From Candidatus Parcubacteria bacterium (GTDB taxonomy: Bacteria > Patescibacteriota > Minisyncoccia > Phycocordibacterales > CAIZLB01), in assembly GCA_039795875.1 (NCBI GenBank), contig JBDKKY010000009.1:1-31773 (forward strand): a stretch of DNA of 31,773 nucleotides, in the 5' to 3' direction. A program made the translations under genes and the position numbers. Shown in pieces: positions 4,543-29,459 of the stretch; within the stretch, counting starts at the first letter, position 1; the number at the start of each line of letters is the position of its first letter. The notes beneath the pieces were generated by a model. That model saw nothing but the letters and a program-made list of their open reading frames with translations. It searched no databases and had not been told where the DNA came from.

Positions 4543-7500
4543 TTGTCTACTAAAGATAAAATTGATATTATTAATACACGTATGAGAGTTTGCCGGACAT
4601 TAATAATTATCATACTTTTGTTGAGTACATTTGTTACTGCAGGTGCTATTTCTGCTGCTTCACAAAATGATGTAATTGCTGCCAACTCTGTAGCTGAAAG
4701 TGGTCTATGGAATCGAATGATCAATGCTTTGGCCACACCTTTCGTTCCTTTGTTTACGCCTCGCATACTTGTTGCCACAGCAGTCACACCATCTGCTCCG
4801 GTTGTGAAAGTTAACACTCCACGAAAAACAGTCGTGCCTCCTCGAGGTATCACACAGAATTTTCTATATGGAGTCTCACAAGCGCAATTACAAGTCGAAT
4901 TGAAAGCCTGGGGTGACAGTATCTTGGCCCGAGCTCTTGCTGGACAACGACAAGAGATTGATGCCCTGGCCCAAAGCTTGAATCGAAGTCTGAATCCTAT
5001 TGTTCAAAATGTTAACAATATCGTCAATAATACTGTTGTAAATAATACCGGTGGCAGCTTTGATTTCTCTGAGATTGTAAATGGTTTGGAGTACTCAGGT
5101 GGAGTATTGTCGACAACTGCCGGATATGAGATCCCTCTGAGCGCTTCAACAACTGGTTGGAACGCATTTTATAACGCACCCTCAAGTCGTATCATCGCAG
5201 GTGCAAATTGCGCATGGGTCAGTAACACCTTCAACTGTGTTAGTGCAAGTGGAAGTGCGACAACAACCATCAATGGTGCCAACGGTCCAACTTTCACATT
5301 TAATGCTGGTAGCAGTGGAACAGATTTTAGTATTGCTACAAGTGCCGGCACAGTTATTTTCAATATTCCGACCTCTTCAGCCTCTGTGCGGGGCTTATTG
5401 GCAGTCACTGATTTTTTGAGAATCCCTTTAACTGCTTCATCAACAAACTGGAATTCTTTTTACAATACACCGTCAACTCGGGTTACCGCAGGCGCAAATC
5501 TGGCCTGGGTTGGCAACACGTTGGGCTTTTCAGGGATTCTGCCAATTGCTAGTGGCGGAACAGGGACAACAACTGCCCCCACCTATGGCCAATTATTGAT
5601 GGGAAATATCGCTGGTTCTTATGATCTTGTTTCTACATCTTCACTTGGGTTTGGATCAGGAACGGTAGGGTCAGGTACAACTGGACAGACTTCATACTAC
5701 GCCGCGAACGGGACAACACTTTCTGCAACCTCAACAGTATTTATTGCCACAAACGGAAATGTTGGGATTGGTACAACAACACCTTCATACAAACTGGATC
5801 TCGGGTATACCAATAGTGGTGCCAATGTACCAGGATTGTATATTCATAATGATGCAGCAGCATCGGGTATTGAAGCGGCTATGTGGATTGCATCTCCCAA
5901 TTCTCAGCATGCATCTGATAGAAACTGGGGCTTTGTTATCAACCATACAGGGAATGGATATTTTGAGATATTGAATTCCGCCAGCGCTTCAACAAATCCG
6001 AGCGTAACAAGATTGACAATCAACTCAGCTGGTCAAGTAGGTGTCGGCTCAGCTCCTATAGCAGGACAGCAGATGACTATCTTGGGAGATGCATCATCTG
6101 ACGGTGATGGCGCATTGTATGTTAAAGGAGATGCCTCAAGTGGAAACTACTCAGCACAGTTACAAGTCGGATCTCGAACAGGATATACACCTTCAAGAAT
6201 TGAATTTGTTGATGGAAGTGGTGCTGGCACAGCAATGCTTGAGTCAAATAGAGGTGATGGAGTTTCGTCTGGTACAGGTGGATATCTGGCGCTGAAGACT
6301 GGTGCTACTGGTGGTACAGCTCCTTCAGAGAGGATGCGTATTACGTCGGCGGGATTGATAGGAATAGGTACCACCACTCCTAACAACAAATTGGATATCT
6401 ATTCAACCACTAAATCTGCCATCGGATTCTCTGGTGCAGCTGGTTCAACATATAAATGGACAATCGGTATGGACGTATCAAATGGTGGCCGATTCTCGAT
6501 CGCTTCATCAACCGCACTTGGAACTACAGATCGATTTGTGATTGATGGTAATGGAAATGTTGGAATCAACACTGCTAGTCCACTTGGCTCTGGCTCAACA
6601 ACGCTACACGTTGCGGGACCTGCTGCTGGTAGTGGTACCCAATATGGATCTTTAACTCTTTCAAATACAGGAAACACAGATGATGTTCTTGGAGCGATTG
6701 ACTTCTATGCGGGTAATACAAGTCAAGCATCTATACGAACTGTCGTGGTTAGTCCAGGATCTTCAGCAGACTTATATTTTATGACTCGAGGCTCTGGAAC
6801 ATTTTCAGAAAAAATGAGATTGACCAATGCTGGGAATCTTGGAGTAGGAACCTCTTCACCTGCATCCAAACTGGATGTCTGGGGCAATCTTCGTGTCGGA
6901 ACCTCATCTACTCCTATATTGATGGTTGACACCGCCACAGGACTTGTTGGTATAGGAACTTCTTCACCAGCATATCAACTGCATATTCGAAAAGATCAAA
7001 ATGCTGGTACAGTTTTGATGGTGCAAAACAACACCAGCGGTACTGCAGCATTCGCCCAGACGATGATGAATACTCCTTCTGATAGTCTGCAAGTTGGTAT
7101 TACTAGTGCGGGATACACTGTGACTGGTGGTGCAGAACTATTTGGCCAAAATACTGCGTACATGGTTGGTAGTGCCGCAGGTGGAGTGAACATGGTTGCC
7201 TCGAATGCGTCCGGTGTAATCAGATTTGGAACTGGCGGTTATGCAACTGCCAATGAAAGAATGCGTATCGATCAAAACGGACTTGTTGGTATAGGAACTT
7301 CTTCACCAGCATATCAACTACATATTCGAAAAGATCAAAATGCCGGTACTGCTTTGATGGTTCAAAACAACACTAGCGGATCGGCTGCTTTTGCGCAACT
7401 GATGATAAACACTCCTTCTGATAGTTTGCAGGTTGGTGTCGGTAGTGCTGCGTATACTCCATCTGGAGGAGCGGAACTATTTGGACAGAACACTGTTTGG

Positions 7501-8841
7501 ATGATTGGTAGTCCAGCAGGTGGAGTTAACCTCGTTGCCTCAAATGCATCCGGTGTGATCAGATTCGGAACAGGTGGTTATGCAGCTGGAAATGAGAGAA
7601 TGAAAATAACCTCTAGCGGCGACGTCGGTATCGGTACAACTTCCCCATACGCCAAGCTATCTGTTGTTGGGCAAGTTGTTGGTCAATATTTTACAGCCAC
7701 TTCAACAACAGCAACTTCAACCTTTGCAGGAGGGCTTGTGGCGGCGTCAAGTCTGTACGTCTTGCAGGGTGGAAATGTGGGTATCGGTACTACAACACCT
7801 ACTGGTAAGTTTGTCGTCCAAGGACCAACTAACAGCTCATCAGGTGGAGGATTGACGACCGTCACTCTTTTGGCAGGAAATGGTAGTGGAGTTAGTGCCT
7901 CAAACGGTCACAATGTGCTTATACAGGCGGGTAATGGTTCAACAGGAGGTTCAACAGGAGGAAATGGAGGATTTCTGGAATTTTATGGAGGTACCGGCGG
8001 CGATACTGTCACTGACGGGTCGGGTGGAAATATCTATATTGCTCCAGGTAACTCAAGCTCTGGAACTAAAGGCCATACTCTCCTCGGCATCATGAGAGAC
8101 GGATCAGTTGTCGGTAATGTTGGTATCGGTACAAGCACCCCTGGTCAAAAGTTAACAGTCGTCGGTAACGCCCAATTTACCGGAGTAACTTCTGGTACGT
8201 ATGCTAGCGATCTAAACATAACCGCCGATGGCACCCTGACTACAAGCGCATCTGATATTCGTCTGAAGGAAAATATTTTAGAGTTGGCTACTTCTACTCT
8301 TGATAAATTGATGCAGCTTAAAGCTTATAACTTTACATGGAAAACAGATCCTGATCATCGCCAAGACCTCGGTTTGATTGCCCAAGAAGTTGAATTTATT
8401 TTCCCCGAATTGGTATTCACTAACCGAACTGATGGATTTAAGGGAGTGAACTATTCTCGACTGGCAGTGTTGCTGTTAAAGGGAATTCAAGACCAACAGA
8501 TCAGACTTGATGATTTGAAAAAATATACAACAGTGCTTAATCTAAAAGAATTACATACCGAAAAACTCTGTGTCGGCTCAGCTGATGATGAGGTGTGTAT
8601 GACCAAAGATGATGTTCGGCGATTATTAAATGGAAACAGTAGTCCTGCTCCAACTGGTAACAATAATGGCGGCGGCGGGGTGACAACTCCAACGGAACCA
8701 GTTATAGAAGAGCCTGCACCAGAGCAAACTCCTCCGACTGAACCAACAGTAGAAGAAAATGTAGAGCCTCCTGCTCTTGTAGTAGATCCAGTTGAAGTCC
8801 CAATTGAATCACCACCAGAAACACTTGCTCCAACAGAATAA
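4543..8841 (+). CDS. giant tail-fibre-like surface protein with C-terminal intramolecular chaperone (peptidase S74) auto-processing domain
   Basis: A TTG start follows AAAGGAGAAAA by 9 nt. The protein has an N-terminal signal-anchor (TLIIIILLLSTFVTAGAISAA). A Gly/Thr/Ser-rich body contains about 8 repeats, each carrying a (N)VGIGTTxPxxKLDV motif, plus two WN(A/S)FYN(A/T)PS(S/T)R(I/V)(I/T)AGAN(C/L)AWV(S/G)NT modules (about 5150-5230 and 5440-5525); the second is followed by LPIASGGTGTTTAP. The C-terminal SDIRLKENILEL...YNFTWKTD...GLIAQEVEFIFPELVF is the phage tail-spike/endosialidase chaperone domain. A Pro/Glu/Thr-rich acidic tail follows. Confidence 0.8.
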   Translation: MSTKDKIDIINTRMRVCRTLIIIILLLSTFVTAGAISAASQNDVIAANSVAESGLWNRMINALATPFVPLFTPRILVATAVTPSAPVVKVNTPRKTVVPPRGITQNFLYGVSQAQLQVELKAWGDSILARALAGQRQEIDALAQSLNRSLNPIVQNVNNIVNNTVVNNTGGSFDFSEIVNGLEYSGGVLSTTAGYEIPLSASTTGWNAFYNAPSSRIIAGANCAWVSNTFNCVSASGSATTTINGANGPTFTFNAGSSGTDFSIATSAGTVIFNIPTSSASVRGLLAVTDFLRIPLTASSTNWNSFYNTPSTRVTAGANLAWVGNTLGFSGILPIASGGTGTTTAPTYGQLLMGNIAGSYDLVSTSSLGFGSGTVGSGTTGQTSYYAANGTTLSATSTVFIATNGNVGIGTTTPSYKLDLGYTNSGANVPGLYIHNDAAASGIEAAMWIASPNSQHASDRNWGFVINHTGNGYFEILNSASASTNPSVTRLTINSAGQVGVGSAPIAGQQMTILGDASSDGDGALYVKGDASSGNYSAQLQVGSRTGYTPSRIEFVDGSGAGTAMLESNRGDGVSSGTGGYLALKTGATGGTAPSERMRITSAGLIGIGTTTPNNKLDIYSTTKSAIGFSGAAGSTYKWTIGMDVSNGGRFSIASSTALGTTDRFVIDGNGNVGINTASPLGSGSTTLHVAGPAAGSGTQYGSLTLSNTGNTDDVLGAIDFYAGNTSQASIRTVVVSPGSSADLYFMTRGSGTFSEKMRLTNAGNLGVGTSSPASKLDVWGNLRVGTSSTPILMVDTATGLVGIGTSSPAYQLHIRKDQNAGTVLMVQNNTSGTAAFAQTMMNTPSDSLQVGITSAGYTVTGGAELFGQNTAYMVGSAAGGVNMVASNASGVIRFGTGGYATANERMRIDQNGLVGIGTSSPAYQLHIRKDQNAGTALMVQNNTSGSAAFAQLMINTPSDSLQVGVGSAAYTPSGGAELFGQNTVWMIGSPAGGVNLVASNASGVIRFGTGGYAAGNERMKITSSGDVGIGTTSPYAKLSVVGQVVGQYFTATSTTATSTFAGGLVAASSLYVLQGGNVGIGTTTPTGKFVVQGPTNSSSGGGLTTVTLLAGNGSGVSASNGHNVLIQAGNGSTGGSTGGNGGFLEFYGGTGGDTVTDGSGGNIYIAPGNSSSGTKGHTLLGIMRDGSVVGNVGIGTSTPGQKLTVVGNAQFTGVTSGTYASDLNITADGTLTTSASDIRLKENILELATSTLDKLMQLKAYNFTWKTDPDHRQDLGLIAQEVEFIFPELVFTNRTDGFKGVNYSRLAVLLLKGIQDQQIRLDDLKKYTTVLNLKELHTEKLCVGSADDEVCMTKDDVRRLLNGNSSPAPTGNNNGGGGVTTPTEPVIEEPAPEQTPPTEPTVEENVEPPALVVDPVEVPIESPPETLAPTE
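6943..7620 (+). repeat. in-frame tandem duplication, 2 x 339 bp (113-aa units, about 85 % identical; first about 65 nt nearly identical)
   Basis: The string cttgttggtataggaacttcttcaccagcatatcaact occurs at 6943 and again at 7282. The translated units LVGIGTSSPAYQLHIRKDQNAGT..GVIRFGTGGYA..NERM align along their full length. Confidence 0.75.
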
Positions 8842-10767: not shown

Positions 10768-11160
10768 ATGCTCAACAAAAGAGTCAAAACAACAAATATG
10801 GAATTAACAGATGCCATATCTGATTATGTTCATAAAAAAGTTGATGTTCTAGAAAAATTCATTGAATCTGATGTGCAAGCTTTGGCAGAGATCGAGATCG
10901 GTAAAACTACACATCATCACCACAAAGGAGATGTGTTTAAAGCCGAGATTAGTCTGACTATGGGTAAAGATAATTTCCAAACTAGTGTGGTTGAGTCGGA
11001 CCTCTATACCGCTATTGATAAGATGAAAGAGAGTATTGTTCAAGAAGTAACACGTTCAAAACGGAAAAAACAGCATCTATTCCGCAGAGGTCGTCAGAAG
11101 ATTAAAAATATATTGCGAGGATTTACTAAAGGCAAGAAAGAGCCAGTAGAGACAGAATAA
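10768..11160 (+). CDS. hpf: ribosome hibernation promoting factor / RaiA (S30AE family)
   Basis: The N-terminal NMELTDAISDYVHKKVDVLEKF, the middle FKAEISL and SDLYTAIDKM, and the basic C-terminal tail match the HPF/YfiA pattern. Confidence 0.8.
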   Translation: MLNKRVKTTNMELTDAISDYVHKKVDVLEKFIESDVQALAEIEIGKTTHHHHKGDVFKAEISLTMGKDNFQTSVVESDLYTAIDKMKESIVQEVTRSKRKKQHLFRRGRQKIKNILRGFTKGKKEPVETE

Positions 11161-11243: not shown

Positions 11244-11603
11244 CTACTTTGCTTTTCTCTTGTGGATAATCACCCGACTTCCGTCTGGATCTAGCACTAC
11301 TGCCATCTGGCAAGTTGGATACGTTTGTGGTTCCAGCTGGAATGTTACGTCATGTTCTTTAAGTTTGGCAACTGCGGCCTCAAAGTCTTCCATTTCAAAT
11401 GCGATACATGCGCCTTCGGGAGAGGGTTTATACATGTCTGGAGCACAGCCGAGAGAGAATGTGCTATCGCCAATCGTATATTCAGTCCACTGATCACTAT
11501 TAAATTCTGTTCCTGGGACGAGCCCGAGTATTCCTTCATAGAAGGCCTTGGCTTTTTTCATATCGTTGACAGCGTATATTGTGAATGCAAATTCTTTAAT
11601 CAT
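11244..11603 (-). CDS. VOC-family (glyoxalase/bleomycin-resistance fold) protein
   Basis: The 119-aa protein shows the MIKEFAFTIYAVNDMKKAKAFYEGILGL and VVLDPDGSRVII beta-alpha-beta-beta-beta module pattern of the VOC family. Confidence 0.65.
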   Translation of the reverse strand: MIKEFAFTIYAVNDMKKAKAFYEGILGLVPGTEFNSDQWTEYTIGDSTFSLGCAPDMYKPSPEGACIAFEMEDFEAAVAKLKEHDVTFQLEPQTYPTCQMAVVLDPDGSRVIIHKRKAK

Positions 11604-11615
11604 TAGTGTGATAAA

Positions 11616-12005
11616 TTAATTGGCTTTTAATGCGTCTGTGACGGCTTTGACAATATCTTGAGGCTCGGTTGTGGCCTTGATCATAAATTGGGCATTGAGA
11701 GAGCCCGCGCGATCTCGATCTTTCCTTTCGTCGGTATTGCTGACAACAATAACTTTAATGCCTTTGGTTCGATCGTCCTTGCGCAATTGTTCCAAAGCGT
11801 CTAATCCGTTCATCCCCGGCAAAAAGATATCTAGGAGAAGGATGTCTGGTAGATTGGTTTTTAATGCATCGAGCAGTGCCTCGGCAGTTGTGAATAAAGA
11901 GGTCTGAATGCCAGCCTCGGCCACTTGGTCTTTTAAAATTCTGCCTAAAAAAGTGTCGTCCTCAACGATAAATACCTTTTTTGAAGTGATGTTTGTGTCA
12001 GTCAT
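11616..12005 (-). CDS. stand-alone response-regulator receiver (CheY-like)
   Basis: It carries KKVFIVEDD, a phospho-acceptor Asp in ILLLDIFLPGMNG, and a conserved T/K (VIVVSN, K). It has no output domain. I prefer the ATG at 12005 because the GTG at 12041 overlaps the -35 box of the divergent promoter. Confidence 0.75.
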   Translation of the reverse strand: MTDTNITSKKVFIVEDDTFLGRILKDQVAEAGIQTSLFTTAEALLDALKTNLPDILLLDIFLPGMNGLDALEQLRKDDRTKGIKVIVVSNTDERKDRDRAGSLNAQFMIKATTEPQDIVKAVTDALKAN

Positions 12006-12030
12006 ATCCACAGTATACACCAGCTCTTCC

Positions 12031-12059
12031 TTGTAGACCACCCATAACTCTAATATAAT
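12031..12059 (+). promoter_or_regulatory. sigma70-like promoter TTGTAG-17-TATAAT for the Met-rich membrane protein / HK operon
   Basis: The -35 box ttgtag lies at 12031-12036, then a 17-nt spacer, then tataat at 12054-12059. That is about 38 nt upstream of the ATG at 12097. Confidence 0.45.
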
Positions 12060-12096
12060 AAAGCTATATCAATAATAACTAACTTTATATAAATTT

Positions 12097-12882
12097 ATGG
12101 ATACAAATATGAACATGGAAGGTCATGATATGATGATGGGTGACAACATGATGACTGGTCATGATATGGGGGGGATGGGTGACATGGGCATGATGATGGA
12201 TATGGGACCTGTGGTCTTCGGAGGCCTTCATTTAGTTAATCTACTTTTAATGGTTTCAGGAGTATTCTATCTTATCTGCGCGCTTTCTATCTTTAAAACT
12301 TGGAGACGAGAAAAGAACGAACTATTGGGAGCCTTGTTTGCCTTTCTATGTTATCAAGCTGTAAGTATGTTTTTCATGGGAGCGGGTATGCAGACTATGA
12401 ATATGTTGTATAGCAACATTGCTGCACTAGCCGTATTTGTTGGATCAGCGTACATGTTGAAATTTCCTTTAAGTAAATTGGCCCAGAAAACTCGAAATGC
12501 TCTGTTTTTGGTCATATTGGTTATTTTGTTGGCACTGTTTGTTTGGTTCGTCCAAACTCCAGAGAGAGAAACTCAATTGATGCACTTCGTGATGTGGTAT
12601 GACTTAGTGGTCAACGGAATTGTTGTAGGAGGATCAATCATTATGTTTGGAATACGAGCAACCGAAGCGGCGTTTAAAAAGAAGGCTATCGGAGGGGGAG
12701 CCGGTGTTGTTAGTTGTTGTGTGGTTGCAACAGGGGCGATGATTGGCGGGGCATTCCTATTTGGAACAATCTTCTCATTTTTGGCTCCAATTATCATCTT
12801 GAGTACATTACGACAGAAAGCTTTGAGCGGTGGGTCGAATACAACATCTGCACCAGCCGCCAATCCAGCACCAACGATGTAG
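12097..12882 (+). CDS. Met/His-rich polytopic membrane protein (putative Cu/Ag-binding accessory sensor)
   Basis: The N-terminal 40 aa are MDTNMNMEGHDMMMGDNMMTGHDMGGMGDMGMMMDMG: 16 Met, 2 His and Asp-rich, resembling Ctr/CopB/CusF 'Mets motifs'. About 6 TM helices follow. Its stop lies 3 nt before the HK start. Confidence 0.55.
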   Translation: MDTNMNMEGHDMMMGDNMMTGHDMGGMGDMGMMMDMGPVVFGGLHLVNLLLMVSGVFYLICALSIFKTWRREKNELLGALFAFLCYQAVSMFFMGAGMQTMNMLYSNIAALAVFVGSAYMLKFPLSKLAQKTRNALFLVILVILLALFVWFVQTPERETQLMHFVMWYDLVVNGIVVGGSIIMFGIRATEAAFKKKAIGGGAGVVSCCVVATGAMIGGAFLFGTIFSFLAPIIILSTLRQKALSGGSNTTSAPAANPAPTM

Positions 12883-12885
12883 TAT

Positions 12886-13830
12886 ATGAATAATACACTA
12901 GAAAGAATCCTTGCGTATGTGCTCGGAGCACTTATAGGAGCGGGCTGCGGCTCGCTTTTGGTGTCTTTAAATATGCACATTATAGATCCTGCGTACCAGA
13001 CAGTGACTGTTAGAATCATGCCACTCATCGGCTTGTTGATTTCTATGGTCATCGTTGAGTATCGGTATGAACGGTCTTTAAAAAAGAATCAGGCAATTCG
13101 AGATGAGACAGTGGCGCTGATTACTCATGAGATGAGGACGAGTCTAACCTCAACCGGTTGGGCAATAGGTTTAGTCTTGAAAAAGTATGGTAACAGTATT
13201 GAGGAATCTGATAAACAGTTGCTAAGTGGTGTGGTTGATTCTATACACACAACGGTTATGCACTCGGTTAATCTGCTTGATGTGAGTCTGCTTGATATCG
13301 GAAAATTGTCGATCTCACTCGAATGGACAAAATTGTCTAAGGTGACAGAGATGATGCATGAAATCTTGGAAAAATATACTATGGGCGCGGAAAGTCATGG
13401 TATTCATTTGACAAAGAATGTCAATATTGATGAAGAAAAAATGGCTGAAGTTGATATGTTGCGCTTGCGAATTATCTTAGAGAATCTTTTGGAAAATGCT
13501 ATCCAGTATACTGCTGAAGGTGCAGATAAAAAGGTGGCTGTCAGCGTGTTCAACGATGAGCACGAGTTGCATGTACAAGTGGCCGATAACGGTATTGGTA
13601 TCCCAACAGGGGAAAGAGAGAAGATTTTTGGTGAATTTTATCGTGCTAGCAATGCTCGCAAGAAACTGAGTACTGGAAGCGGTATCGGTTTGTATACCTC
13701 GGCCAAATACATCAAAGCTCATAGAGGAGAGATCCGTTTTGAGTCTACTGAGGGTAAAGGAACTACCTTTTTCATCACCATTCCTCTCAAAACCGAGGCT
13801 GATGTTGGAGGATTCTTGAAGAAGATATAA
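12886..13830 (+). CDS. sensor histidine kinase (intramembrane-sensing type)
   Basis: Two N-terminal TM helices are joined by a short loop of about 10 aa. The H-box is ITHEMRTSLTS. The N/G1/F/G2 boxes are ENLLENAIQYT, VADNGIGIP, FGEFYRA and GSGIGLY, forming a HATPase_c domain. Confidence 0.8.
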   Translation: MNNTLERILAYVLGALIGAGCGSLLVSLNMHIIDPAYQTVTVRIMPLIGLLISMVIVEYRYERSLKKNQAIRDETVALITHEMRTSLTSTGWAIGLVLKKYGNSIEESDKQLLSGVVDSIHTTVMHSVNLLDVSLLDIGKLSISLEWTKLSKVTEMMHEILEKYTMGAESHGIHLTKNVNIDEEKMAEVDMLRLRIILENLLENAIQYTAEGADKKVAVSVFNDEHELHVQVADNGIGIPTGEREKIFGEFYRASNARKKLSTGSGIGLYTSAKYIKAHRGEIRFESTEGKGTTFFITIPLKTEADVGGFLKKI

Positions 13831-20720: not shown

Positions 20721-21143
20721 ATGCGGAGATCATACACACCAGATAAGTTTAAAGTAATAGTCAAACGATCAAATGCTGGCCTAGGACTATTTGCAGGAGA
20801 TGATATTCCTAAAGGAACTTGTATCATTGAATACAAAGGGCGACAGATCAAAGGACAAGAAGAGTATACTAGTACGAGCAAATACCTTTTTGGAGTACAC
20901 GATCGTTTGACTATAGACGGACGAGAACGGTCAAATACAGCGCGGTATATCAACCACTCATGTCGAGCCAATTGCGAACCGATCAGCTATAAAGCTCGAG
21001 CCTATATATTTGCCAAAAGAAAAATTATGGCTGGTGAAGAATTGACATATGATTATGGAAAGGAATATTGGAATGAACATATCAAGCCTTTGGGCTGTCG
21101 ATGTGTGAAGTGCGTTGAGAGGAAGGCTACTGTTAAGGAGTAG
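20721..21143 (+). CDS. SET-domain protein lysine methyltransferase (minimal, vSET-like size)
   Basis: The 140-aa protein has a SET core with ARYINHSCRANCE (NHSCxPN motif) and ELTYDYG, followed by a Cys-rich post-SET segment (CRCVKC). Confidence 0.75.
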   Translation: MRRSYTPDKFKVIVKRSNAGLGLFAGDDIPKGTCIIEYKGRQIKGQEEYTSTSKYLFGVHDRLTIDGRERSNTARYINHSCRANCEPISYKARAYIFAKRKIMAGEELTYDYGKEYWNEHIKPLGCRCVKCVERKATVKE

Positions 21144-24704: not shown

Positions 24705-25103
24705 CTACCGATTGATGTAGGTAATTGTCAATTGTAGACATGTTGCAAATGTGACCCAGAGTAGATAAGGAATTTGTATATACGTAATCCACCGTGCGTG
24801 AGAGAAAATTGCAATCATGGCCCAGACCAAAGTCCCAAGAACTAGGATGATATCAAGTGCTGCTAAACCGTTACTTTTTAATCCAAACTGTATCGGAGTG
24901 AAGATGAGATTGAAAACAATATTTAAAATAAAAGGTAACGCCACAATAAATGGTATCTGTTTGTGAAATGCCATCCAAAATACTTTTCCAAAAGAAATAG
25001 TAATCAAGACATATAAACATGTCCACACTGGTCCAAATAACCATGAAGGTGGTGCCCATGTTGGTTTGGCTAATTTTGAATACCAGGCGTAGTTTTGATT
25101 CAT
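24705..25103 (-). CDS. tspO: TspO/MBR tryptophan-rich sensory protein
   Basis: An ATG at 25103 gives MNQNYAWYSKLAKPTWAPPSWLFGPVWTCLYVL, the TspO N-terminal signature, and 5 TM helices. The upstream extension in the track ORF 24705..25154 is unlikely to be coding. Confidence 0.7.
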   Translation of the reverse strand: MNQNYAWYSKLAKPTWAPPSWLFGPVWTCLYVLITISFGKVFWMAFHKQIPFIVALPFILNIVFNLIFTPIQFGLKSNGLAALDIILVLGTLVWAMIAIFSHARWITYIQIPYLLWVTFATCLQLTITYINR

Positions 25104-25480
25104 GGATATAGTATATCTTATATCTATTGCAATAATAATAGGAACACATGTCAATAAACACGTAGATCTTTATCCCAACTATGCCAAATAAAAAACCTTC
25201 CGAAGAAGGGGTGAGACTCGTTGCAGGTAGGTTCTAAGTTTTGCGTGTCTACTGACAAAATGTTGGGGGAGTGGAAGCAGCCCCGAGAGACGCATGCCGG
25301 GAGAAAGGCGATCCCGATCAAACTTGTACTTGTGCGTGCGATAGACCGTTTGAGAGTACGGTCGACTTGGTTACTTCTAACCTGGACTGTCCAGTAGAAT
25401 TGGCCGGGCACTGCCTGCAACGAGCTCGAAAATTAGTATACATATGAGGGATGTGGTTGTCTAGAGGTCCGATTTTTCAT

Positions 25481-26309: not shown

Positions 26310-26338
26310 AAAATACCCTTATAAACAAAGGGTATTTT
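26310..26338 (+). terminator. Rho-independent terminator (aaaataccctt-ataaaca-aagggtatttt)
   Basis: A perfect 11-bp stem and 7-nt loop lie 42 nt after the stop of the TrmB-like gene. Confidence 0.6.
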
Positions 26339-26398
26339 ACGTATACGCCTTTTGTATATTTTGAATTGTAATCTTATATTTTTTTCTGAAAAAATATT

Positions 26399-26433
26399 TT
26401 GACATATTGTACTTTGTTGCAATACTAATCTCA
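26399..26433 (+). promoter_or_regulatory. candidate sigma70 promoter TTGACA-16-AATACT upstream of the SPFH gene
   Basis: A consensus -35 hexamer sits in AT-rich DNA about 135 nt upstream of the GC-rich gene. Confidence 0.35.
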
Positions 26434-26567
26434 GAACGAACTTTGACAGCGAGTGGTATGTAAGACAACTGAACAGAATTCGCGACAGCAATGCATCCGG
26501 ATACGTAGATGGATGCAACGCTGTTTCGAATCATCGACTCAGTAAACCCAAATACAACACGCACTAT

Positions 26568-27875
26568 ATGACTAAATCTAGAATCGTTCTGGCCCTTATC
26601 CTGATCGGGATAATTGCCTTCATCGAGTTCGTTATACTCACTCCTACCGATCAACTCATCAGCCCCAAGATGGGGATCAATCAGGTCAACGGTGATGATC
26701 TTGACGGCTTGAAGCTGCGAAGCTTGCAAGAAGCCAAGAACACCGTCACGTTGATCTGTGGTACGCTCTACGGGCTTGTCGCCCTGTGGCTGTTCAAGCC
26801 GCTGATTTTGCGGCTGTGGAAATCTGGCAACAAAGCACCAGTCACCAATCTGATTCTGATTGGTTTGGCTTCGACCACGATGGTCAGCTGTATGAAGCCG
26901 TACGACAAACCTGAGTACGTCGAGATCAACAACAATGAAACCGCTTTCGTGTTTCCGCTTGAGGGTGACACGAAAGAGCAGGCCAAGTTCCAGAGCAAGG
27001 AACACCTGCAGCAAGCCAAAGTGGCTGCTAAACGTATTCAGATCACGCACCGGTGGAATCAAACCGCCCGTGGCGAAAGCAACGGCGAGTGGATACCTTC
27101 CATTCGTGTGATCAAAGTTGACCGCTCGCCAGTGACTCGTAACTGGCAAGCTGCGGCCGGTGGTGCCCAAACCAAAGGACAAGAGAAAGATACGGCCATC
27201 TGGGTCGAGTCTGCCGACAGCGTCGGCTTCTCCATGGGCTTTGCCTGTACCGCGTATGTGACGGAAGAAGATTCCGCTACGTTTCTGTATTGGTATCCGA
27301 GTGGTAGCCTGGCTATCGTGATGGACACCGAGATCAGGGCTCGCATACAGCAAGGTGCTGCCGAGGTCTCTGCTAAGTACCCGCTGGATATTCTTCGCGG
27401 GAAAAAGCAGGAGATCATAGACAGTATTCGTACTGATGTGACGGTGTTCTTCAAAGAGCGCGGTATCACGATCACCACTGTTGGTATGTTCGGCGGTATG
27501 ACGTACGAAAACACGAAGATACAGGAGGCCATAGACTCCGTCTTCATTGCTCAGCAGGAAAAAGAAAAAGCCAAGGCGGCTTTCGAGGCTCAGGAAAAGC
27601 TGAACGCTACTGTCACGCTGGCGGCGCAAGCTCAAGCTGACAAAAAACGCATCGAGGCTGAAGGTGAAGCCAAAGCCATCGATGCGGTGCAAAAAGCGTT
27701 GCAACAAGCTGGACCTCTGTACATTCAGCGCGAGTTCATTACGCGCTGGGACGGCAAGTTCCCTGAGTACTACCTGGGAGGCGGTGCTGGTGGCCCCTCT
27801 CTGCTCCTCGGAGTTCCTGCTCCGACACCAGGCAAGGTGGAACACTCCACTGAGCCTACCCCTACTAAGAACTGA
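26568..27875 (+). CDS. SPFH/band-7 (HflK/C-, flotillin-like) membrane protein, GC-rich
   Basis: It has an N-terminal TM helix and an SPFH-like core. A Glu/Ala/Lys coiled-coil follows (QQEKEKAKAAFEAQEKLNATVTLAAQAQADKKRIEAEGEAKAI), as in HflK/HflC. The Gly/Pro-rich C-terminus is GC-rich. Confidence 0.6.
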   Translation: MTKSRIVLALILIGIIAFIEFVILTPTDQLISPKMGINQVNGDDLDGLKLRSLQEAKNTVTLICGTLYGLVALWLFKPLILRLWKSGNKAPVTNLILIGLASTTMVSCMKPYDKPEYVEINNNETAFVFPLEGDTKEQAKFQSKEHLQQAKVAAKRIQITHRWNQTARGESNGEWIPSIRVIKVDRSPVTRNWQAAAGGAQTKGQEKDTAIWVESADSVGFSMGFACTAYVTEEDSATFLYWYPSGSLAIVMDTEIRARIQQGAAEVSAKYPLDILRGKKQEIIDSIRTDVTVFFKERGITITTVGMFGGMTYENTKIQEAIDSVFIAQQEKEKAKAAFEAQEKLNATVTLAAQAQADKKRIEAEGEAKAIDAVQKALQQAGPLYIQREFITRWDGKFPEYYLGGGAGGPSLLLGVPAPTPGKVEHSTEPTPTKN

Positions 27876-27911
27876 GGTTCTCTGAGGGAGATGCATTGAG
27901 TGCATCATCGG

Positions 27912-27946
27912 GCGTTCGGTCAGCAATGACCGGACGCTTTTTTATT
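27912..27946 (+). terminator. Rho-independent terminator with GCAA tetraloop
   Basis: The 11-bp stem gcgttcggtca / tgaccggacgc (one G-U pair) and GCAA loop are followed by TTTTTTATTT. Confidence 0.7.
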
Positions 27947-27958
27947 TCCGTAAACATA

Positions 27959-28435
27959 CTATTCTCCATCAAATGCCTTCTGCAATGCCGATACATCAAT
28001 CTTTACCATCTTCATCATCGCCTGCATCACTCGGGCTGATTGTTCAGGTGTGCCCTTACTCATCAGCTCAGGCAATTGTTGTGGTACAACTTGCCATGAC
28101 AGGCCGAATTTATCTTTTAACCAACCACATTGTGATTCTTGTCCACCGTCGGCTAAAAGTTTTTCCCAATAATAATCAACCTCAGTTTGGTCTTTGCAAT
28201 CGACCATAAAAGAGATAGATTCGTTAAATTTGAACATCGGGCCGGCATTCATAGCTGTGAACTTTGATCCGTCAAGTTCGAAAGAAACAATTTGTACTGT
28301 TTGTTTTTCATCAGGACCAGTATTTTCCATTTCCTCTTGTCCTAGGATTTTGGAATTGGGAAAAATAGAAGTATATAGCTTTGCTGCCTCTAGTGCCTGC
28401 GTGTCGTACCAAAGGAAAGGGGTTACTTTTGTCAT
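27959..28435 (-). CDS. PhnB-like / 3-demethylubiquinone-9 3-methyltransferase-domain (VOC-fold) protein
   Basis: MTKVTPFLWYDTQALEAAKLYTSIFPNSKI ... DCKDQTEVDYYWEKL ... CGWLKDKFGLSWQV is the typical PF06983 pattern. Confidence 0.7.
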   Translation of the reverse strand: MTKVTPFLWYDTQALEAAKLYTSIFPNSKILGQEEMENTGPDEKQTVQIVSFELDGSKFTAMNAGPMFKFNESISFMVDCKDQTEVDYYWEKLLADGGQESQCGWLKDKFGLSWQVVPQQLPELMSKGTPEQSARVMQAMMKMVKIDVSALQKAFDGE

Positions 28436-29060: not shown

Positions 29061-29459
29061 GTGTCATTTTATAAGATAAATGGTATGAATATATTCACAA
29101 TCTGGAACACCTACAAAGAAAACCTAGATAAGAGATTATCTGTGCCTGTATTTCACTCTAGAGAAATCTGGTGGTGTGCACTCGGTAAAAATATTGGTCA
29201 CGAGCAGGATGGGAAAAATGAATTATTTGAGAGACCTGTGTTGATTTTACAAAAGTTTAGTAAAGAAGTCTGTGTGGTTATACCTATTACATCTACTGAT
29301 AAAGAAGGTAAATATTATTATGAATTAGAAATGTCTGACTCTAGAGTGATATTAAGTCAGATACGGTTGATTAGTGCAAAGAGATTATTGCGCTTTATTA
29401 AAACTATATCCCGAACTGAATTTAATATAATTAAACAAAAAGTGAAAGATCTTCTGTAA
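29061..29459 (+). CDS. PemK/MazF-family endoribonuclease toxin-like protein
   Basis: REIWWCALGKNIGHEQDGKNELFERPVLIL ... VCVVIPITST aligns with Kid/PemK GEIWLVSLDPTAGHEQQGTRPVLIV ... LPVVVPVTSG, including the GHEQ motif. It has an N-terminal extension of about 30 aa. Confidence 0.6.
   Translation: MSFYKINGMNIFTIWNTYKENLDKRLSVPVFHSREIWWCALGKNIGHEQDGKNELFERPVLILQKFSKEVCVVIPITSTDKEGKYYYELEMSDSRVILSQIRLISAKRLLRFIKTISRTEFNIIKQKVKDLL

Follow-up and report, generated by a model that had tools for sequence, protein, structure and literature searches.

A stretch of 31,773 bp, which constitutes an entire contig of a 'Candidatus Parcubacteria bacterium' metagenome-assembled genome (MAG) and is henceforth termed the window, harbors three small adjacent genes encoding a seven-transmembrane (7TM) protein of a family without a name, an intramembrane-type histidine kinase (IM-HK), and a stand-alone receiver. 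We propose, with a probability of about one half, that their products constitute a three-component system in which the 7TM protein serves as sensor or co-sensor of the kinase. Membrane protein and kinase form a near-obligate unit with the receiver as a frequent third member, and the module would represent a lineage-specific signaling system of Parcubacteria (Paceibacteria, Candidate Phyla Radiation (CPR)). These bacteria have tiny genomes with very few regulators, and almost nothing is known of what they sense. Since the module is kept in ca. 200 sequence clusters across the group, the signal it conveys probably matters for the way these bacteria live.

The general logic of an intramembrane-type kinase combined with an accessory membrane sensor is already known. 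What is new is the unannotated partner family, in which a G protein-coupled receptor (GPCR)-like 7TM fold goes along with an outer face covered in Met and with two vicinal Cys buried in the membrane. Also new are the almost universal association of this family with a single orthologue group of kinases, an output that consists of a receiver alone, and the restriction to the CPR. The Met/Cys chemistry is testable, and the three small genes offer a tractable model for a separate 7TM receptor driving an intramembrane-type kinase, in addition to possible use as a soft-metal or oxidant biosensor part.

Gene architecture of the module

The 7TM membrane-protein gene (12097..12882, plus strand; database entry RJB39_383) encodes 261 aa and is followed by the kinase gene (12886..13830, plus strand; RJB39_384), whose 314-aa product comprises a two-TM hairpin, a DHp domain carrying His81, and a catalytic domain. 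The junction reads TAG-TAT-ATG (12880..12888), i.e., both genes share one frame with a 3-nt gap, a spacing that suggests translational coupling. The receiver gene lies on the minus strand (11616..12005) and is separated from the membrane-protein gene by a divergent AT-rich intergenic region (12006..12096). A first-pass annotation of this DNA, made from the letters alone, had delineated the same three open reading frames (ORFs), all of which we found at identical positions, and had noted the 3-nt distance between the membrane-protein TAG and the kinase start, which is confirmed. Its 141-aa receiver corresponds to the maximal ORF (11616-12041) read from a GTG at 12041, whereas its own intergenic bounds of 12006-12096 imply the ATG at 12005 and a protein of 129 aa.

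Kinase and receiver

The kinase contains a HATPase_c domain (Pfam, 3e-27) and matches the NCBIfam models WalK, PnpS, and PhoR at ~1e-39, all under the model cutoffs. Its TM helices span residues ~8-28 and 44-60 and are joined by a linker of ~15 residues, slightly longer than the ~10 estimated in the first-pass annotation, which had correctly described an input of two TM helices without an extracytoplasmic sensor. Because the H-box His81 follows only ~21 residues past TM2, there is no room for a HAMP or sensor domain, although the NCBI names of some kinase orthologues suggest HAMP. The outer loop is 13% conserved, varies between 0 and 13 aa among orthologues, and is almost absent in loci L028 and L037. 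An input region consisting of two TM helices and a short linker, with no extracytoplasmic sensor, is the defining feature of IM-HKs (PMC4388633), and the short, unconserved outer loop bears out the earlier assignment to this type. Judged by this layout, the kinase cannot sense outside the membrane on its own.

Orthologues of the kinase form 203 clusters (E of 1e-50 or better), all of 303-327 aa. The catalytic boxes are kept in 37 orthologues, namely the H-box around H81 (ITHEMRT), LLxNAxxYT, DNGIGIP, FxxFYRA, and GSGIGL, and invariant residues within the TM helices are G14 and G18, which form a GxxxG motif in TM1, and G49 in TM2. The receiver consists of a Response_reg domain alone (Pfam, 1.2e-18). 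In 19 of 19 receiver orthologues, E27, D28, D29, the phospho-acceptor D71, S101, and K122 are invariant, and orthologues at other loci measure 127-169 aa and are all receiver-only. The kinase boxes together with the receiver's acidic pocket, Asp, Ser/Thr, and Lys are those of a two-component system. The earlier description of an output-less receiver without a DNA-binding domain thereby extends to every orthologue, each with the full phospho-acceptor set.

The 7TM partner

Hydropathy and an AlphaFold2 model computed from a 42-sequence alignment (pLDDT 84, pTM 0.75) place seven helices in the membrane protein, at residues 46-72, 75-100, 103-120, 130-152, 155-187, 191-216, and 220-247, preceded by a disordered tail with pLDDT <50 across residues 18-34. 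A polytopic protein of 261 aa had been described before, but with about six TM helices rather than the seven found here. Among 121 close homologues, to which the compositions below also refer, K/R make up 17-19% of predicted inner loops and helix ends and <2% of predicted outer ones, while N-terminal tails contain 0.4% K/R and 11% D/E. The topology is therefore N-out, C-in, with the acidic tail extracytoplasmic. The charge distribution and the seven helices thus settle the topology check proposed in the first-pass annotation in favor of a Met-rich N-terminus outside the cell.

This extracytoplasmic, disordered tail rich in Met, Gly, Asp, and His (residues 1-37; 12097..12207, plus strand) holds 15 Met, 2 His, and 6 Asp. 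Elsewhere in the window, no run of 37 residues in any frame exceeds 7 Met, and the binomial probability of 15 Met in 37 residues is ~4e-15 at a background of 2.5% Met. The enrichment, the two His, and the multiple Asp reported previously hold; the Met count is 15 and not 16. Enrichment extends beyond the tail in a graded fashion, with Met contents of 28.8% in N-terminal tails, 14.4% in outer loops, 13.2% in the outer thirds of helices, 2.9% mid-membrane, and 0.4% in cytoplasmic loops. Tail length among homologues ranges from 2 to ~60 aa, yet a short cluster of Met directly ahead of TM1, e.g., MEHMMMEPMGP, is retained by almost every close homologue. From this pattern, the long Met tail reads as a clade-specific expansion of a short cluster that is near-universal in the close family. 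Met/His motifs in the tails include MxM, MMM, GHDM, and MEGH, and the distant homologue P0138 has a Met/His/Glu-rich tail that it either retained or gained independently. In the distant homologues P0143 (locus L045) and P0159, the outer TM4-TM5 loop accommodates a His/Glu/Asp-rich insert of 30-40 aa.

Since each Met codon of the tail is a possible start, we considered that the tail might be untranslated. This is not the main explanation because a single frame with G/D/H/E codons between the ATGs is kept in all homologues, because nearly all close members keep the Met cluster before TM1, and because no Shine-Dalgarno sequence marks an internal start. None was detected upstream of the membrane-protein gene in any locus examined either, and the exact start codon is uncertain. 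Because a tandem-repeat scan of the module region gave no match, a simple DNA repeat does not account for the Met tail.

Conserved residues occur at several places within the bundle. The outer end of TM2 and the adjoining outer loop form a 'Met ladder' (12364..12408, plus strand) that reads S90-M91-F-F-M94-G95 followed by AGMQTMNM; M91, F93, and M94 of its SMFFMG motif are invariant in 121 of 121 close homologues. Mid-way through TM6 lies a vicinal Cys pair, S206-C207-C208 (12712..12720, plus strand; codons agt tgt tgt), in which both Cys are present in 121/121 close homologues and in 27/31 (C207) and 26/31 (C208) distant ones. A further Cys in TM1, C61, is invariant in the 42-sequence alignment and present in 115/121 close homologues. 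Both data sets additionally show Q87 (TM2), W167-Y168-D169 and N173 (TM5), and P231 (TM7) to be invariant or near-invariant, and the same applies on the cytoplasmic side, where YMLKFP and KxKAxGGG are conserved loops, to K122-F-P and K196. Among the 31 distant homologues, position 87 changes to Met in 23, position 91 to His in 15, and position 169 to Met in 18. Such Gln/Met, Met/His, and Asp/Met exchanges are the pattern expected of soft-metal ligands.

The model corresponds to a GPCR-like 7TM fold in the sense of fold class only, i.e., a predicted seven-helix up-down bundle with N-out/C-in orientation that superposes on GPCR 7TM domains. Foldseek returned no significant match; the weak best matches, at identities of 6-16%, were GPCRs and microbial rhodopsins including sensory rhodopsin II (TM-score <0.5, E ~0.03), which denotes likeness in fold class and not homology. 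Among the 50 Foldseek matches listed, no transporter fold was present save a weak match to ZnT3 (rank 45, TM-score 0.26).

Family distribution and gene linkage

The membrane-protein family is small and comprises stand-alone proteins of 200-290 aa. A search of 5.8 billion proteins yielded 165 homologues (clusters), none with a Pfam domain, and the few labelled ones are assigned to Parcubacteria, Taylorbacteria, or plain 'bacterium'. An exhaustive profile search of 1.84 billion representative proteins recovered 50 clusters, all of at most 290 aa, and no fusion to a kinase or any other domain. Given that no fusions were found, there is no support for viewing the protein as a sensor domain that split off from some known type of kinase. 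The membrane protein matches neither Pfam nor NCBIfam, the family profile matches no sequence in the PDB, and a Pfam scan of 42 members at E up to 10 gave nothing consistent. The profile searches on the TM core that had been proposed as a check thus returned no Pfam, NCBIfam, or PDB family and no transporter fold, and, in particular, no well-characterized transporter family was matched.

To assess linkage, one genome per species was scanned, which gave 41 loci, nearly all from MAGs of CPR/Patescibacteria; ORFs were called in these loci and searched with the window proteins. A kinase orthologue adjoins the membrane-protein gene in 39 of 39 loci with enough flanking DNA. It lies directly downstream in 38 of the 39 testable loci, with a median gap of 6 nt and at most 20 nt in 31 of 38. 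Rearranged and distant branches retain the association: the kinase is divergent in locus L034, where the receiver lies downstream, and divergent from the membrane-protein gene in L053, while in the distant homologue P0138 the two genes converge, and the kinase there is an orthologue whose N-terminus and C-terminal FLKKI are unchanged. Downstream of P0141 lies a gene for a two-TM protein with an H-box, downstream of P0130 and P0137 genes for TM proteins cut by contig ends, and downstream of P0163 one for a soluble protein. In the reverse direction, three kinase orthologues on contigs missing from the membrane-protein list were looked up, and all three have the membrane protein and a receiver next door. 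The two families are also alike in size (165 membrane-protein versus 203 kinase clusters), and several of the largest contigs appear to be common to both match lists.

The pairing spans three relative orientations and reaches homologues at E ~1e-19, and it is the only feature constant over all loci, while the other neighbors vary. Membrane protein and kinase are a near-obligate unit because the kinase is found in 39/39 loci, in rearranged and distant branches, and in 3/3 reverse look-ups. Co-occurrence of the gene trio in related genomes, proposed earlier as a check, consequently holds for the pair, but the receiver is adjacent in only about half of the loci. IM-HKs that rely on accessory membrane proteins are established, as for SaeS with SaePQ and LiaS with LiaF (PMC4388633, PMC3543457), and the 39 loci and three look-ups document a genetic association of this kind.

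Proposed mechanism and alternative explanations

The co-sensor role suggested for the Met-rich protein in the first-pass annotation has gained support from the checks on topology, family, linkage, kinase type, and receiver. Going beyond the observed gene architecture, topology and fold class, conservation patterns, and near-obligate pairing, we infer contact between the proteins, a direction of information flow, a ligand, and an output. In the proposed mechanism, the outer face of the 7TM protein, with Met and some His and Asp in tail, outer loops, and helix ends, would capture a thiophilic ligand, most likely Cu(I)/Ag(I). The ligand may then reach an intramembrane site composed of the TM6 Cys-Cys pair and the Met/His/Gln/Asp positions of TM2 and TM5. 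A resulting conformational change would pass sideways in the membrane to the two-TM hairpin of the kinase, with its GxxxG motif in TM1; the conserved cytoplasmic loops YMLKFP and KxKAxGGG could provide an additional route. The signal would set autophosphorylation at His81 and phosphotransfer to Asp71 of the receiver, which would act on a target via protein-protein contact. In physiological terms, the receiver may control another protein, serve as a phosphate sink, or pass the signal on within a longer relay.

Cu(I)/Ag(I) as the ligand is a best guess by analogy, which we hold tentatively. The most specific version of the proposal, a CPR-specific 7TM metal receptor with a Met antenna and an intramembrane Cys-Cys/Met/His site that gates a kinase laterally and has a non-transcriptional, receiver-only output, is likewise more doubtful than the three-component system as such. 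If true, it would represent a new class of bacterial metal receptor and the first 7TM-to-histidine-kinase coupling beyond the rhodopsin-transducer paradigm.

Several points weigh against our interpretation. Judged by adjacency, a sensor looks no different from a target under regulation or from an accessory subunit with an inhibitory role, and only about 18 of 38 testable loci have the receiver next to the pair. Around the distant homologue P0143, no kinase gene lies within a distance of 5 kb, and this homologue may represent a kinase-independent branch of the family. With regard to the metal, genes of metal homeostasis (copA, copZ, cueO, csoR) were absent from the window and from within 6 kb in the 41 loci, and a bare receiver offers no obvious route to a metal-resistance response, for which known Cu-sensing systems use DNA-binding regulators. 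The long Met tail is dispensable in evolution, as many members have only 3-5 Met before TM1. Finally, Met and Cys are equally good oxidant sensors.

This last point leads to a first alternative, in which the outer Met carpet and the membrane Cys pair form a redox switch (Met sulfoxide or disulfide) that reports hypochlorite, peroxide, or other oxidants without any metal. The Met-rich outer face and the invariant Cys fit oxidation as well as they fit metal binding, and a precedent exists in HprS/YedV of E. coli, for which activation by reversible Met oxidation in a periplasmic loop has been proposed and a transmembrane Cys is important (bioRxiv 10.1101/2021.09.09.459708). We nevertheless regard an oxidant sensor as unlikely. 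In the tails, His, Asp, and Glu recur at regular intervals (GHDM, MEGH), and distant members carry His/Glu/Asp-rich inserts with few Met, both of which point to cation binding; the buried Met-to-His and Asp-to-Met exchanges are typical of metal ligands; and no msr genes were found in the neighborhoods examined.

In a second alternative, the 7TM protein would be an accessory subunit without ligand specificity, either a LiaF/SaeQ-like modulator or an adaptor for membrane state or envelope stress that sets the kinase/phosphatase balance, and the Met tail would be a tolerated low-complexity expansion. The gene layout matches liaF-liaS and saePQ-saeRS (PMC3543457, PMC4388633), and tail lengths between 2 and ~60 aa are as expected under weak constraint. 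Speaking against it, Met enrichment extends to conserved outer loops and helix ends with M91 and M94 invariant, the Cys-Cys, Gln, Asp, and Asn that are invariant within the membrane speak for a specific binding site buried there, and no similarity exists to LiaF, SaeQ, or other Pfam families. On balance, we assign this explanation a low probability.

The 7TM protein could also be a transporter or channel for Cu(I) or another soft metal, with the kinase reading its activity in the manner of Bce flux sensing or just sharing its operon. A Met ladder followed by a mid-membrane Cys pair follows the logic of the Ctr1 filter and of translocation by MerT/MerE (PMC6437178, PMC5715351), BceAB-BceS provides a precedent for a transporter as co-sensor (bioRxiv 10.1101/2020.02.28.969956), and P0143 stands alone and kinase-free. 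This, too, seems improbable to us: the fold neighbors are receptors, with ZnT3 as a lone and weak exception, no transporter family was matched, and the model output, a single seven-helix bundle, hints at neither internal repetition nor a pore built from several subunits. With their high conservation, the loops on the cytoplasmic side (K122-F-P, K196) are more reminiscent of a surface for coupling to an effector. That the adjacency is inherited gene order among three independent genes is very improbable. In its favor, the hibernation factor and PepF genes, conserved within sub-clades only, indicate that some synteny is merely inherited; against it, the pair alone is conserved while all else changes, persists across orientations and into homologues at E ~1e-19, and has gaps mostly of at most 20 nt or overlapping genes.

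Comparison with known systems

In LiaF-LiaS-LiaR, VraT-VraS-VraR, and SaeP/SaeQ-SaeS-SaeR, the same type of two-TM, short-linker kinase is encoded with an upstream membrane-protein gene in one operon, and its signal is likewise expected to come from a membrane partner (PMC4388633, PMC3543457). What sets the module apart is its partner, an unrelated protein with seven TM helices, a GPCR-like fold, and no place in Pfam; in addition, its regulator lacks a DNA-binding domain, and its host belongs to the CPR rather than the Firmicutes, with no link to cell-envelope antibiotics. It is not a member of LiaFSR or VraTSR: no LiaF/YvqF-type match was obtained in 42 members at E up to 10, and the regulator has no NarL-type output domain. 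BceRS-BceAB likewise comprises a kinase without a sensor that relies on a polytopic membrane protein encoded alongside it, but the partner in the module has no ATPase or transporter fold and no ABC transporter occurs in the neighborhoods. Bce-type membership is not supported, as no adjoining BceAB-type ABC transporter was found and the regulator is receiver-only instead of OmpR-type. Clustering of neighbors over the 41 loci revealed no transporter family that recurs beside the pair, and no ABC transporter was noted among the window genes, the neighbor clusters inspected by eye, and the Pfam-annotated contexts.

Sensory rhodopsin II-HtrII offers a fold-level parallel only, a stand-alone 7TM receptor that signals laterally to a two-TM transducer controlling a histidine kinase. 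Here, TM7 carries no retinal Lys, and the two-TM partner is the kinase itself and not an MCP-like recruiter of CheA. The nearest idea in the literature is a proposed heliorhodopsin-kinase coupling (PMC8612252). Our literature searches identified no described system of such arrangement, in agreement with the first-pass annotation, which knew of none.

With CusRS, CopRS, and PcoRS, the module would share an extracytoplasmic Cu(I)/Ag(I) signal to a membrane kinase (PMC10100754, PMC7763554). In these systems, the kinase itself binds the metal through its periplasmic domain, and efflux genes are driven by a regulator of the OmpR type, whereas the kinase of the module lacks such a domain, a separate protein is the candidate for metal binding, and the regulator consists of a receiver alone. 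Ctr1 resembles the 7TM protein in its extracellular Met/His-rich N-tail and conserved Met at an outer TM-helix end (PMC6437178, PMC8867124). The tail motifs MxM, MMM, and GHDM look like the Met/His clusters found in the N-terminal ectodomain of CTR1 (PMC8867124), and M91-x-x-M94, which is invariant and lies where TM2 reaches the outer side, is reminiscent of the MX3M filter in TM2 of Ctr1 (PMC6437178). Ctr1 is, however, a three-TM trimeric channel with MX3M, compared with a 7TM bundle with MxxM and Cys-Cys, and the two have no sequence relationship. The Ctr family was rejected accordingly (seven TM helices instead of three, M91-x-x-M94 instead of MX3M, no Pfam match).

MerT has three TM helices. 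Together with MerE, it resembles the membrane protein in using a mid-helix Cys pair to handle a thiophilic metal; Cys24-Cys25 of MerT and Cys28/Cys30 of MerE are needed for Hg(II) transport (PMC5715351). These proteins are small, with few TM helices (two predicted for MerE), and are encoded in mer operons, in contrast to the module, which has no mer context and whose Met-rich surface points to Cu/Ag rather than Hg.

Further family assignments were considered and rejected. A microbial rhodopsin or heliorhodopsin is incompatible with the membrane stretch of TM7 (residues 220-239, AFLFGTIFSFLAPIIILSTL), which contains no Lys; the sole Lys in helix 220-247 is K243, located in a cytoplasmic RQK segment. 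Heliorhodopsins are additionally ruled out by the N-out topology, which is inverted in that family, and no Pfam rhodopsin model was matched. The MHYT module (PF03707) was reportedly described by Galperin et al. in 2001 as a polytopic membrane module with Met/His near the outer face, predicted to bind copper and to feed signaling outputs. It is a six-TM domain of three two-TM repeats carrying Met-His-Tyr-Thr motifs and is fused to outputs, in contrast to the stand-alone 7TM protein, and had no match at E up to 10 in 42 members. Acyltransferase-3 (OafA/YrhL), a JGI label on some homologues, was matched by 2 of 42 members at E of at least 0.16 and has ~10 TM helices as opposed to seven. Enzymes of the CREST or alkaline ceramidase-PAQR type are 7TM hydrolases with conserved metal-hydrolase His/Asp/Ser residues in the core; the membrane protein does not fit this description, which would also entail a match to Pfam Ceramidase or HlyIII.

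Intergenic region and genomic surroundings

The divergent promoter put forward previously for the intergenic region exists as a sequence, with TTGTAG-17-TATAAT at 12031-12059 on the plus strand, but its -35 element agrees with the consensus at only 3 of 6 positions, and a promoter consensus scan called no promoter anywhere in the region, passing over this candidate as well. On the minus strand, TATACTGTGGAT lies directly upstream of the receiver ATG. A search for a conserved operator yielded a partial motif only, ATATCCACA/TGTGGATAT, which recurs in 5 of 17 orthologous receiver/membrane-protein intergenic regions. In the window, positions 12003-12019 on the minus strand read TATACTGTGGATATG; the same motif type occurs in the intergenic regions of L001, L007, L027, and L032, and in L007 it takes the form of a near-perfect palindrome, TGTGGATATCCAC. 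Both the window and L001 have a -10-like TATACT that precedes the receiver ATG by 6 nt and suggests a leaderless receiver mRNA or an operator.

Among genes near the module, a hibernation factor gene is adjacent in 10 of the 41 loci (L001-L003, L024, L028-L031, L037, L051), and a PepF gene lies downstream in the three closest relatives only. The window copy of the former (Ribosomal_S30AE) is located at 10768-11160 on the plus strand, and in one clade the gene is part of a conserved priA-def-fmt-hpf block. This linkage may reflect either inherited synteny or a functional tie to dormancy. Small proteins of the glyoxalase/3-dmu-9_3-mt (VOC/bleomycin-resistance) type are encoded in the window at 11244-11603 and 27959-28435, both on the minus strand, and in L004 and L052; such VOC-fold proteins recur near the module in several genomes, and one lies between hibernation factor and receiver in the window. 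P0143 adjoins a cyclodipeptide synthase gene. Many module-bearing TPA MAG records (L001-L040) are titled 'uncultured Candidatus Saccharibacteria' and L041 is titled Nanoarchaeia archaeon; such titles on a Parcubacteria-type module are probably labelling or binning problems.

By Pfam-type annotation, the genes surrounding the module in the window are ordinary chromosomal genes. They include a D-Ala-D-Ala carboxypeptidase fragment, an MraY-type (family 4) glycosyltransferase, FtsW, and MurG, the hibernation factor, a glyoxalase-fold protein, and PepF, as well as Cmk, NUDIX, TspO, TrmB, and a MazF-like toxin. Scans of the window for tRNA and Rfam elements detected none. A 1432-aa ORF at 4543-8841 (plus strand) carries a Peptidase_S74 domain (8.8e-16) at residues 1237-1291, near its C-terminal end. 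Peptidase_S74 is the intramolecular chaperone of endosialidase and tail-spike proteins, and its presence suggests a large self-cleaving surface fibre or adhesin encoded on a CPR chromosome beside cell-wall genes. The region 26337-27926 has a G+C content of 53% compared with ~40% around it and contains a long ORF on each strand, either of which may be the coding one: the minus-strand ORF has 529 aa and no Pfam match, whereas the plus-strand ORF has 435 aa and a weak SPFH/Band_7 match. Unusual for a reduced CPR genome are a SET-domain protein (20721-21143, plus strand; 1.2e-23), a TspO/MBR protein (24705-25154, minus strand; 1.3e-29), and a MazF/PemK-like toxin (29061-29459, plus strand; 3.5e-15).

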